64,000 bases of DNA from Eledone cirrhosa (Eukaryota), in NCBI GenBank assembly GCA_964016885.1, contig OZ024759.1:17794001-17858000 (forward strand), written 5' to 3'. Shown here piece by piece: positions 6,166-60,282 of this stretch. The position numbers were made by a program, and so were the translations under genes. Within the stretch, counting starts at the first letter, position 1. Each line of letters starts with the position of its first letter. The notes beneath the pieces are model-generated. The model ran no database searches, had not been told where the DNA came from, and was given only the letters and a program-made list of their open reading frames with translations.

Positions 6166-6287
6166 TAACAAAGGAAGTGTGGTAAGGAACCAGGTGGACC
6201 ATAACGCACCAGAGTACTTGATACTTTGGGGAGTAGAGTGGGTAATAGGAAAAGAGTCAGGACCCCAGGTTCTGACTATTTTCCTAT
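6166..6287 (-). mobile_element. PLE-type 3' cassette (family H3) starting at the predicted HHR cleavage site, with a short fold-back arm
   Basis: Homologous to 27249-27348 and 60162-60282; flanked by (TA)n; hairpin ATAGGAAAAGAGTCAGGACC...GGTTCTGACTATTTTCCTAT. Confidence 0.7.
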
Positions 6288-16101: not shown

Positions 16102-16127
16102 TTATTTCCTTCATTATATATATATAT

Positions 16128-16245
16128 ATAATGAAGGAAATGTGGTAACGAAGCAGATGGACCATAACACACCAAAGTACTCAATACTTAGAATTAGCCG
16201 TCGAAACGGCTTGAGCTCTTCTGTCAGGGTCATACTTGTTCCTAT
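16128..16245. mobile_element. Family H3 cassette, rearranged (minus-strand tail plus plus-strand HHR 3' half)
   Basis: aatgaaggaaatgtggtaa...gtactcaatactta then gaattagccgtcGAAAcggcttgagctc...gttcctat(TA)n. Confidence 0.65.
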
Positions 16246-21721: not shown

Positions 21722-21921
21722 AATGGTGTGTGTGTAGAAGGAAGACACAGTAGAGGAAGACCATGAAAATCATGGGCGTAGATGGTGAAAACTGACCTCA
21801 GATTGCTGAAGCTCACAGATGAGATGACGAAAGACCATGACGAAAGGAGAGATGCTGTGCTGAAGAGGACCCATCCCACCCTTGCAAGCAGGGAAAAGCG
21901 GATGTAAAATGATGATGATGA
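21722..21921 (+). mobile_element. RTE family B 3' end
   Basis: agaggaagacc...gacctcagattgctgaagctcac...cccttgcaagcagggaaaagcggatgtaaaatgatgatg. Confidence 0.75.
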
Positions 21922-27133: not shown

Positions 27134-27348
27134 ATAGGAACGAGTAGGACCCCGACGGCTGAGCTCAAGCCGTTTCGACGGCTAATTCTGGACTAAAATA
27201 ATATTTTAGTCCAGAATTAGCCGTCGTAATGGCTTGAGCTCAGCCGTCGGGGTCCTACTCGTTCCTATTACTCACTCTACTACCCTAAGTATTGAGTACT
27301 TTGGTGCATTATGGTCCATCTGGTTCCTTACCACATTTCCTTCGTTAT
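27134..27348 (+). mobile_element. Family H3 cassette: 67-bp-arm palindrome containing the HHR 3' half plus tail
   Basis: Palindrome centred at 27201; GAAA-CGGCT-TGAGCTC-AGCC-GTC^GGGGTCC on the minus arm; (TA)n flanks. Confidence 0.75.
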
Positions 27349-28251: not shown

Positions 28252-28578
28252 GTAGAAGTTCTATTTAAATTGTTGGGATACAACAAGCAAATATTTTTAT
28301 AACTGATATAAAGCACTCAACAAATTATTGGAGTAAAAATACGATATATTAACAAATGGAAACTATATTTATAAAACCATATTTATTTCATTATACATAT
28401 TTCAAGGACACTTGAAATGGTCACATTCTTTAAGGGTATGTCAATATTTATTTATAAAACTGGTCTATATTATATTTTATCTGATGAAAGCGCACCATAA
28501 TTTGACTTGGTGTCCTTGAACTATGTATAATGAAATAAATATGGTTTTATAAATATAGTTTCCATTTGTTAATATATC
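28252..28578. mobile_element. HHR cassette family H1 with inverted arms
   Basis: Arms 28343-28411 and 28509-28578; plus-strand HHR 28473-28537 (CTGATGA...GAAC; the other arm retains GAAA); homologous to 48625-48797 and 52901-53441. Confidence 0.75.
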
Positions 28579-28880
28579 ATATATATATATATATTGTAAT
28601 ATTTCTATATTCTTATATTTCTCTATTCCTACAATCTTAAATTCCTATATTCCTATATTTTAATAGTCTTATAGTCTTATATTTATATAGTCCTATATTC
28701 TTGAATGTCTATATTCCTGTATTTCTATATTCTTATATTCTGGTGTTTGCTTTAAGCTCCTGATTATCAAGTCTCTCTTTCTGTCTTATGCCCATTTAAT
28801 CAATAATGGTTTTTCTCTTGACTTTTGAAGTGCCATCCCAATTGTTTGTGTATGTAAGAATGTGTATATTTATGCATACA

Positions 28881-35293: not shown

Positions 35294-35623
35294 TCTGTTT
35301 ATATGCCAACACAAGAGCAAGAATGAAGTTGTCATTCTGCAGACATGGCTTAATGAGGCTGTTTGCATAATAGCAAATGAATCGGATATTGTTATTGATA
35401 ATCGAAAAACTCAGATTACATTTATATATATATATATATATTGTTCTTCAGGCATGTTCAGTCCTCCTGCTGCTATGAAGGAATTTAACTATACTATGTA
35501 CATGACCTCCAAGATCGTTGACTGCTCCCTGTAACTGACAAGAAAAACAAGCAATTTTTAGGATTTTTTACTTAGATATTTCTGCTTCTTTTGTTTTGAC
35601 TGCATGCCCATATATGGACTGTA

Positions 35624-35717
35624 CTCCTTGATGAGTTCAGCTAGATTCCTGCCGTTCTACTACTGGTGGCTTAGTTCGGATCTAGCTGTCGAAACGGCCG
35701 GAGCTCAGCCTTCGGGG
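35624..35717 (+). ncRNA. Full-length family H3 hammerhead motif, decayed
   Basis: CTCC-TTGATGA-stem II CAGCTAGAT.../ATCTAGCTG-GAAA-CGGC..GAGCTC.GCC-TTC^-GGGG. Confidence 0.6.
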
Positions 35718-35730
35718 ACCTGACTCTTTT

Positions 35731-35772
<42 letters not shown>

Positions 35773-38675: not shown

Positions 38676-38750
38676 TATATATATATATAAATATATAAAT
38701 GCATATGTATATATAAATATATGTTTGTGTGTGTATGTGTGTATATCTAT

Positions 38751-38885
38751 ATATTTAATGTAGAAATGGCTTCTACAGGACTAGAACTGTTTCATTTGAA
38801 GGAAATCATCAGAAAAGACATTTCTATATTAAATATTTATACCCTGCTATGTATTTAGTACCTTACTTACTGTGGTCCCCCCCCC
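38751..38885. mobile_element. HHR cassette family H2 (minus-strand HHR 38770-38816)
   Basis: Minus: TTTT-CTGATGA-TTTCCTTCAAAT-GAAA-CAGTTCTAGTCCT-GTA^GAAG; homologous to 43275-43467 and 47693-47883. Confidence 0.7.
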
Positions 38886-38899
38886 CTCCCCCGACACAC

Positions 38900-38954
<55 letters not shown>

Positions 38955-43274: not shown

Positions 43275-43467
43275 GTTATTCCGGGTTGAATCGGAGGTAA
43301 CCACAGTAAGTAAGGTACTCAATACATAGCAGAGTATAACAGTTTTAATATAGATGAGATTCTACAGGACTAGAACTGTTTCATTCATTAGAAATCATCA
43401 GGAAACCTGATGATTTCTAATGAATGAAACAGTTCTAGTCCTGTAGAATCTCATCTATATTAAAACT
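43275..43467 (-). mobile_element. HHR cassette family H2 with a perfect 62-bp-arm palindrome carrying HHR cores on both strands
   Basis: Arms 43341-43402 and 43406-43467; minus HHR TTC-CTGATGA-T TTC TAAT GAA T-GAAA-CAG TTCTAGTC CT-GTA^GAA. Confidence 0.8.
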
Positions 43468-47545: not shown

Positions 47546-47692
47546 TAGAAAGGACATTCAGATGAGGAAACTATGTCAAACATGGATTGTTATCGGTGAA
47601 AGAAGTTCACTGCAACCTGTCTAATCACAGACCATGACACAACATTTAACCTCATGACAATGATGAGGATGATGATAGTATATATATATATA

Positions 47693-47883
47693 TAATATAG
47701 AAATAGCCTCTACAGGAATAAAAGTGTTTCATTCGGGAGAAATCATCAGGAAACCCTGATGATTTCTTCTGAATGAAACAGTTATAGTCCTGTAGAAGCC
47801 ATTTCCATATTAAATATTTATACTCTGCTATGTATTGAGTACCTTACTTACTGCAGTTACCCCCGATTGATCCTGGAATAAAC
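47693..47883 (+). mobile_element. HHR cassette family H2, inverted arms
   Basis: CTGATGA at 47756, GAAA at 47775, GTA at 47792; inverted diverged copy 47693-47750. Confidence 0.75.
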
Positions 47884-48119
47884 ATATATATATATATGTT
47901 TATATATATATATATATTGTTATACTTGGGGAGGGTCATATTTGTGTAATATTGCCAGAATTAATAACAGAACACACTCACTGTTTGGTTGGTTTTCGCT
48001 TCTGTGTCTTTTATATCGGTAATCTAATTTATTCGGTCCTCAATGTTGCCATTGACTGACCAATGGTAAAAAATAATACAGATACAATATAGACACAAAC
48101 ACATATATATAGTTTATCA

Positions 48120-52515: not shown

Positions 52516-52808
52516 TATAAAGAAAAAGAGATGAAACCGAAAATGCAACTGGAGTCTTATTTTTTTTTTAAATATATATATTTATTTGGTTCCTTTACCG
52601 GTTTTGCAGTTCTTCTGCTTTTCAAAAGGTGAGTTGAGATGGAGGGTCTGTGGTTTTTCTCACAGAAAAACCACAGACCCTCCATCTCAACTCACCTTTT
52701 GAAAAGCAGAAGAACTGCAAAACCGGTAAAGGAACCAAATAAATATATATATTTAAAAAAAAAATAAGACTCCAGTTGCATTTTCGATTTCATCTCTTTT
52801 TCTTTATA
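52516..52808. repeat. 145-bp-arm near-perfect palindrome containing a decayed minimal HHR
   Basis: Centre CAC 52661-52663; one mismatch seen; CCTT-TTGAAAA-GCAG AAGAA CTGC-AAAA-CCG-GTA^-AAGG at 52695-52732. Confidence 0.85.
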
Positions 52809-52902: not shown

Positions 52903-53441
52903 TAGAAGGGATATTTAATTTGTTGGAAATTCAACAAATATAAATGTTTATAAGATTCAGAGCACTCAACAGGTTTCTGGAGTAAGTATTCAATGATATT
53001 AAATAAATGGAAACTATATTTATAAAACCATATTTATTCTATTATATATATTTCAAGGGTACCAAATAAAACTTTGGTACGCTTTCATCAGATAAAATAC
53101 AAAGTATGTTTAATAAATGGAGACATACCCAGGAAAATCATACCTTATCAGTTAAATATTCCCTATACAGGGAATAGGGAATATTTAACTGATAAGGTAT
53201 GATTTTCATACGAAAATCATTTTCATATGAAAATCATACCTTATCAGTTAAATATTCCCTATCCAGGGAATATTTAACTGATAAGGTATGATTTTCCTGG
53301 GGATGTATCCATTTATAAAACAAACTTTGTATTTTATCTGATGGAAGCGTACCAAAGTTTTATTTGGAACCCTTGATATATATATAATAGAATAAATATG
53401 GTTTTATAAATATAGTTTCCATTTATTTAATATCATTGAAT
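52901..53441. mobile_element. Family H1 cassette with long inverted arms and nested hairpins
   Basis: Arms from 52988 to 53441; intact HHR on minus strand, mutated HHR on plus strand (CTGATGG, GATA). Confidence 0.8.
53035..53099 (-). ncRNA. Type I hammerhead ribozyme motif, intact core
   Basis: TATTTTAT-CTGATGA-AAG c GTACCAAA gtttta TTTGGTAC c CTT-GAAA-TATAT-ATA^-ATAGAATA. Confidence 0.8.
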
Positions 53442-59911: not shown

Positions 59912-60129
59912 ATATATATATATATAAGAAAACCCCTTCGGCTGCACTCCAGCAGTTTCAACAGCTAAATCGGAATGGGTCTAGGTGTTGAAACACCGTT
60001 TTCATATAGCTCTTGAAAAGGTTGGAGCTCAGCTGCAAGGCTCCCAAATTTTTCATATTACCCACTTAACTTCCCCAAGTATCGAGTACTCTGGTGAGTA
60101 ATGGTCTAAATGGTATTTACTGCCTCCAT

Positions 60130-60161
<32 letters not shown>

Positions 60162-60165
<4 letters not shown>

Positions 60166-60278
60166 CGAAGGAAATCTGGTAAGGAACCAGATGGACCATA
60201 ATACACCAAAGTACTCAATACTTGGGTAGTAGAGTGGGTAATAGGAACGAGTAGGACCCCAGTGGTCCTACTCGTTCC

Positions 60279-60282
<4 letters not shown>
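60162..60282 (-). mobile_element. Family H3 tail starting at the predicted HHR cleavage site, with fold-back
   Basis: ATAGGAACGAGTAGGACC-ccagt-GGTCCTACTCGTTCCTAT; (TA)n on both sides. Confidence 0.75.

Follow-up and report, generated by a model that had tools for sequence, protein, structure and literature searches.

The window analysed here, a whole stretch of 64 kb from a 3.0-Gb host genome that is rich in (TA)n, contains six copies related to the H3 repeat family. We numbered H3 from the first G after the predicted ribozyme cut (GTC^), so that position 0 is window position 27249. The copies and the features beside them, in window coordinates, are as follows.

60163..60260, minus strand: copy 1, tail-bearing arm, from position 0 (GGGGTCC, at 60260) to the +97 end
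60261..60263: copy 1, linker of 3 nt, or of 1 nt if the inverted arm is allowed one substitution and so reaches 0
60264..60281, plus strand: copy 1, inverted arm, an 18-nt perfect match to +2..+19, with its outer end in (TA)n
60135..60162, no strand: target tract of (TA)n bordering the tail of copy 1
60017..60114, plus strand: old, diverged H3-like copy beside copy 1, 72% identity
6166..6266, minus strand: copy 2 (sister subfamily), tail-bearing arm, from position 0 (at 6266) to the +97 end
6267: copy 2, 1-nt linker
6268..6287, plus strand: copy 2, inverted arm of 20 nt, +2..+19, with 2 mismatches
27136..27348, plus strand: typical copy of the major class, arms joined at -44/-45, predicted cut between 27248 and 27249
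16124..16245: copy whose two arms do not overlap, a tail arm (+36..+97) on the minus strand and a -36..+19 arm on the plus strand
35617..35735, plus strand: sister-subfamily copy with a whole (mutated) type I hammerhead, ending at +19, no tail

Copies 1 and 2 are both inserted in (TA)n, with a second (TA)n tract adjoining copy 1 beyond 60281, and the sequence upstream of the predicted cut is absent from both. The first-pass annotation had placed the start of each at the first base after GTC^, and their tail arms do begin there. The two are not products of one DNA duplication: they are identical at 101 of 123 positions, differ in their subfamily diagnostics and linkers, and lie in unrelated flanks. 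The copy at 27136..27348, which the same annotation had used as its reference, proved to be a fold-back itself and holds only the 3' half of the hammerhead. Two cut-site copies among six is well above the genome-wide rate, and we treat this as luck.

The H3 hammerhead and its parent element

Long copies of H3 contain a full type I hammerhead with stems I to III and a U3-A8 core. The U3-A8 copies have the three stems, the 3-8 pair, GAAA, the G10.1-C11.1 pair and the NUH triplet of this ribozyme type. Stem pairing across 11 copies was found in 91.3% of cells versus 24-45% in slid controls, figures to which no probability attaches since the sequences are related, and two compensatory changes in stem II separate the subfamilies. 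Helix III is 5 bp long. About half of the long copies carry a C3.A8 mismatch (1,166 C3.A8 versus 1,197 U3-A8 matches genome-wide), which would be expected to impair catalysis given the conserved 3-8 pair; a literature search gave no direct source for such an effect. The mismatch is tied to subfamily, yet the mismatched subfamilies amplified well. The predicted minimum-energy structure differs from the active fold (z = -0.40 and -0.11), a rival hairpin spans the GAAA, and stem III is not predicted to form in an RNA starting near -45. An Rfam scan of the window gave no hammerhead among the 150 rows listed of 246, and its output contained microsatellite and palindrome noise. Self-cleavage at GUC by the H3 hammerhead is a prediction from the ends of genomic copies, and we consider it likely.

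Judged by its sequence features, H3 is the terminal repeat and "tail" of a putative Hydra-type Penelope-like element (PLE) with a type I hammerhead. An exact H3 25-mer has 17,570 matches genome-wide, and three subfamily patterns found 22,282 tail-bearing copies (10,917 + 9,867 + 1,498). The copies have two fixed 3' ends, +19 and +97, both upstream of the start codon, and long copies extend 1.4 kb upstream of H3 into an open reading frame (ORF). At locus L182 this is a 710-aa open frame lying 1.4 kb upstream of H3, a single ORF with a reverse transcriptase (RT) and a GIY-YIG-type endonuclease (EN). By eye, we read the motifs YRDD, DKT, CxCX5C, YIGLT, CxxC and CxH in its translation. The Hydra-clade features among them, also read by eye, are DKT, the CxCX5C linker, and CxxC plus CxH around a conserved E and N, with no CCHH; RWR stands at a plausible place of the RWK motif, as placed by eye rather than by alignment to reference elements. 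A Pfam search of the L182 ORF returned no match, nor did a search of it against solved structures; its homolog P0092 matches Pfam RVT_1 (E = 2e-07). In L182 and in a tandem copy, about 90 nt of 5' UTR separate +97 from the start codon, and therefore both fixed 3' ends are internal to the RNA.

The pLTRs were seen inverted with a one-sided tail and as tandem units (L131/L184). The latter (L184:1500-2200, L131) comprise three tandem 257-bp units that begin at -44 and end about 23 nt beyond the start codon, with TTT microhomology at the joints, and represent repeated template jumps; this 3-unit tandem was the only one among 94 matches. We considered a non-LTR retrozyme, which forms tandem arrays of short ORF-less hammerhead units, and rejected it because H3 copies are dispersed, head-to-head and tied to an ORF-bearing element. 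In L186:5660-6980 (L044), an H3 tail arm that ends at -28 runs, without a change of orientation, into a different GIY-YIG-type ORF, of which the 3' part is present together with a UTR; this junction is either a chimera or a related family with a common repeat.

Ends of H3 copies relative to the predicted cut

We scored by script the ends of a consecutive sample, 94 of the first 100 matches listed on contig C1, and left loci obtained with a query containing upstream sequence out of the end statistics. The furthest reach lay at -49..-34 in 58 of the 94 copies, two or three of which are read-through copies stopped by indels. Only 4 of 94 ended at -1..+1, after three of seven (L125, L141+ and L143) were dropped as one-base indel artefacts. 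The sample held 6 read-through copies stopped by indels as scored by script and about 12 by eye, and 50 fold-backs were called, with diverged ones missed. Inversion calls beyond about -100 were discarded as spurious alignments. Across the whole genome, the -34..-49 zone contains the joint of 10,617 palindromes, and by eye the sister subfamily also tends to stop, at -40/-41. Ends at the cut, which the first-pass annotation had described for copies 1 and 2, are thus the exception in this family, and the dominant stop is -34..-49.

At the dominant stop we found a TTAGT or TCAGT motif with its A at -41, which resembles the initiator consensus. An Inr-like motif is noted in pLTRs in the available text of PMC3846280. 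The dominant stop is probably the transcript start. An extra cap-derived G at the -41 end, sought by eye, was clear in 4 of 50 listed joints and ambiguous in most, so the start site remains a probable one. In six loci (L005, L009, L013, L039, L093 and L112), the joint at -41..-45 carries as many as about 22 consecutive T or A. These represent oligo(A) on the cDNA 3' end, which would have been made either by terminal addition or by telomerase-like slippage on a U run.

A second, minor class of copies ends at the cut. A pattern that allowed symmetric joints anywhere between +8 and -7 matched 837 short fold-backs, of which we analysed the first 80 of 100 listed. Among these 80, 25 tail arms and 25 inverted arms ended at 0, and 25 arms at 0 compared with 10 at -1. 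Both arms ended exactly at 0 in 18 of 80 and within 1 nt of 0 in 28; at each of -3..-7, none of the 80 had both arms centred, and at each of +2..+9 between 0 and 4 did. The 27 strict cut-site joints differed from copy to copy in their linkers, which were 0 nt long in 7, 1 nt in 7 (all A/T), 2-3 nt in 9 and 5-6 nt in 4. One-nucleotide linkers among 50 listed palindromes, read by eye, were A/T in 11 and C/G in 1. Blunt joints of CCCC to GGGG made up 7 of the 27 strict joints and, by eye, 20 of 50 listed; they are ambiguous by one base, as the arms may end 0/0 or be two -1 arms overlapping by CG.

Counting as exact those palindromes with 0-6 nt between the G4 runs, we found 225, 72 and 32 in the three subfamilies, a total of 329 versus 22,282 tail-bearing copies (about 1.5%). 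By eye, GTC was retained in 8 of 50, 15 of 50 and about 15 of 32 listed palindromes (16-47%), which are hence unclean. By eye, cut-site joints made up about 8 of the 63 matches listed for the sister subfamily, a figure blurred by age. A histogram of truncation points relative to GTC^, the check that the first-pass annotation had proposed, therefore contains a nucleotide-sharp peak at the cut. This H3 peak is real, sharp and minor.

Snap-back, two-sided priming and cleavage

The first-pass annotation had explained the fold-backs by an RT snapping back on its own cDNA: a single cDNA on self-cleaved RNA folds and primes itself, a route that the available text of PMC3846280 proposes for PLE palindromes. 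By this route the inverted arm should fall within the tail arm, and the loop should measure 3 nt or more. Containment holds for both window copies, and the two arms of one copy agree in their subfamily variants in 58 of the 60 copies scored, although such agreement is equally expected from one RNA or one source locus. Against snap-back, among the 50 fold-backs of the consecutive sample, the inverted arm reached further upstream in 17 and the tail arm in 19. The 60 long-copy loci included 14 long head-to-head pairs, each with one +19 end and one tail end. The +19 arm was the longer in 7 of these 14, with a difference above 0.9 kb in five of them, and a +19 arm cannot serve as template for the tail arm. 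Either arm can be the longer by over 1 kb (in one pair the +19 arm spans 1,404 nt versus 38 nt; arms were measured to 1,500 nt at most). Linkers of 0-1 nt, too short for a priming hairpin, occur in 14 of the 27 strict joints. Snap-back also leaves the fixed +19 outer end unexplained, and tail-tail copies, +19/+19 copies and solo +19 arms occur. The arms of the copy at 16124-16245 have no common sequence and would need a later deletion. Across fold-backs, long pairs and this copy, the arrangement of a contained inverted arm with a loop of at least 3 nt was not found to hold. Snap-back is largely refuted, barring extensive later deletion, and we hold it to be quite improbable. Two cDNAs primed from both target ends fit better, given the symmetry of arm lengths, the presence of one +19 end and one tail end in each long pair, and the non-overlapping arms.

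That tail-bearing arms begin at the cut through head-to-head, two-sided priming on ribozyme-cleaved RNA is our main reading, with a probability of about 0.65. Cleavage at the cut is favoured by the exact position of the ends, by single A/T additions as at run-off, and by a depletion of cut-site palindromes in one subfamily. The single A/T linkers suggest run-off addition of +A at a physical RNA end. Cut-site palindromes account for 0.73% of +6C copies versus 2.06% of +6T copies, a 2.8-fold depletion in +6C (p = 1e-16), and +6C long copies are mostly C3.A8 (19 mismatched versus 6 U3-A8, from 30 loci per core type). The +6A subfamily was predicted to lack cut-site copies (C3.A8 in 4 of 4 typed long copies), yet it has 32 of 1498 (2.14%), like +6T (p = 0.85). 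Trans cleavage or residual activity of C3.A8 could reconcile this result. These rates replace an earlier subfamily enrichment (p = 3e-5), in which the 25-mer anchor under-sampled +6T, biasing the denominator and overstating the effect. The RNA 5' end made by self-cleavage that the first-pass annotation had proposed thus gains from the sharp GTC^ peak and the independence of the copies; it loses from the small size of the class and from the genotype prediction that failed.

We weighed two further explanations for the minor class. Priming could be two-sided and the stop at 0 not made by the ribozyme, being instead an RT pause at the base of stem III, exonuclease trimming to the G4 run or to a protein footprint, or a minor second start. 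A type I hammerhead is cut at the foot of stem III, a possible pause site for an RT; +6A is undepleted despite its mismatched core, the blunt joints can be read as 0/0 or -1/-1, and the active fold is disfavoured in prediction. A pause at a hairpin foot, however, should copy the unpaired -1 base, and the excess of arm ends at 0 over -1 stands against it, the 10 arms at -1 being explicable by overlap with the other arm. The single A/T additions point to run-off, RNA starting near -45 is not predicted to form the expected stem III, and +6C and +6T differ 2.8-fold with the same stem III. We consider a stop made without the ribozyme unlikely. The short copies could also be later collapses of longer (-41) palindromes or duplicates of a few truncated masters. 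Long palindromes are unstable, and microhomology-guided joints are common at +5 and at GTC, both of which speak for collapse. The empty positions from -3 to -7 speak against it, as do linkers that are diverse and untemplated across at least five variants, and the two window copies, which differ in subfamily, linker and flanks. Collapse or duplication is very improbable.

On the main reading, two-sided priming on cleaved RNA, the steps would be as follows. By analogy with an anole element in vitro, the element protein would nick both target strands, one cDNA starting at +97 and one at +19, and each cDNA would extend to the template 5' end. This end would usually lie at about -40 to -45, at the initiator-like motif inside ribozyme stem II, and the usual transcript would lack the ribozyme 5' half. 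In about 1-2% of events the template 5' end would be the cut site, on read-through, tandem or trans-cleaved RNA. The RT would often add an untemplated A, and the ends would then be joined bluntly or via microhomology. In long copies, both cDNAs would have switched from the 5' end to the 3' repeat before continuing into the 3' UTR and ORF.

A reading of the full cycle is more tentative, and we give it somewhat less than even odds. A start inside the 5' hammerhead would disable it, and the cut by the 3' hammerhead would leave an R-like terminal redundancy of about 41 nt. A dimeric enzyme would prime strong-stop-like cDNAs at +19/+97 on both target ends; immediate joining would give mini-palindromes, and transfer to the ribozyme-made 3' end would give long copies. 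If that cycle is correct, the copies with ends at GTC^ would prove that PLE hammerheads cleave germline RNA in vivo. In L1 twin priming, two target-primed cDNAs are joined into an inversion, and in retroviral minus-strand strong-stop synthesis a short cDNA runs off the RNA 5' end and then transfers to the 3' repeat. H3 is unlike both in that its two primings lie at fixed internal sites near the RNA 5' end, and its repeat (about -41..-1) would, unlike the retroviral one, be bounded by the start site and the ribozyme cut.

Related elements and other fold-back families

The comparisons below refer to the available portions of the cited papers. The Hydra clade of C-terminal EN+ PLEs (Craig et al. 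2021, PMC8557442) resembles H3 in having a single ORF with RT and C-terminal GIY-YIG-type EN, DKT, the CxCX5C linker, and CxxC and CxH. It further shares a canonical hammerhead, (TA)n targets and an inverted 5'-truncated copy with a one-sided tail. H3 departs from the clade in its RWR for RWK, in a unit of about 3.8 kb owing to a 1.4-kb 3' UTR (Hydra elements are generally <3 kb), and in a tail of about 78 nt versus 30-40 bp; the likeness to the clade is by description, with motifs read by eye.

The Poseidon element PAc of Anolis (Frangieh et al. 2024, PMC11167929) matches our model for H3 in that, in vitro, both target strands are cut and extended. Like H3, it has AT-rich targets, a hammerhead upstream of the starts, and two internal sites at which RT begins, the tail being the stretch between them; the PAc starts lie inside the ORF, whereas the two 3' ends of H3 lie in the 5' UTR. 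Cleavage was dispensable for PAc in vitro, and its cut coincided with neither the beginning nor the end of any RNA-seq read, in contrast to the minor genomic class of H3 that ends there.

The PLE hammerheads described by Cervera and De la Pena (2014, PMC4209133) are, like that of H3, type I in the pLTR with a long helix II and a short helix I. A U3-A8 covariant core was reported there already for Schistosoma PLEs. The 5-bp helix III of H3 is nearer the fungal and protist monomer-active forms, and H3 differs in the C3.A8 core of about half its long copies. The same source states in vivo evidence for PLE hammerheads to be absent. Junctions of Adineta vaga Penelope elements (Arkhipova et al. 2013, PMC3846280) share with H3 the head-to-head inverted pLTR, one-sided tail, Inr-like motif and microhomology joints; the arm-length symmetry of H3 favours two primed cDNAs over the self-priming model of that paper.

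The insertion layout and the inverted copy with a one-sided tail are thus already known (PMC8557442, PMC3846280). Our literature search, in which coverage of subscription papers was limited, turned up no paper that relates the inner ends of genomic copies to the hammerhead cut. The available text of PMC8557442 holds no mapping of inner ends to the ribozyme, and the phrase "cleavage site" does not appear in that of a 2026 preprint on retrozymes (10.64898/2026.07.22.740005). We add a count over the whole genome, controlled by neighbouring positions, together with the test on long pairs and a genotype test whose outcome is mixed. The hammerhead's role in PLEs is called unclear or without in vivo evidence in the portions of the literature available to us, and hundreds of independent insertions ending at the predicted cut offer a genome-scale, base-exact prediction. 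The arm statistics separate self-priming from two-sided priming and point to the transcript start.

Other repeats in the window also fold back. A second hammerhead-bearing family (43280-43463, 47690-47900 and 38700-38900; L267-L296) has its cut at GTA^GAAGCC and 1,931 matches of one pattern. Its main 5' stop lies at about -44..-46, at the start of stem I and at a distance similar to that in H3, and the two families have a short tail motif in common. Among 15 short fold-backs of this family, 4-5 end near its own cut, and another match set has n = 3; both samples are small. A third fold-back family with a hammerhead-like core lies at 28334-28587 and 52988-53441; its copy at 52988 has nested palindromes with 189-nt arms that are 95% complementary. 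Another repeat, at 52516-52808, is a near-perfect palindrome with 145-nt arms and a 3-nt loop and adjoins (TA)n. Finally, a motif with CTGAAGA ... GAAA spacing followed by (TGA)n recurs at 21860, 35875 and 56031 and is possibly the end of another retroelement.
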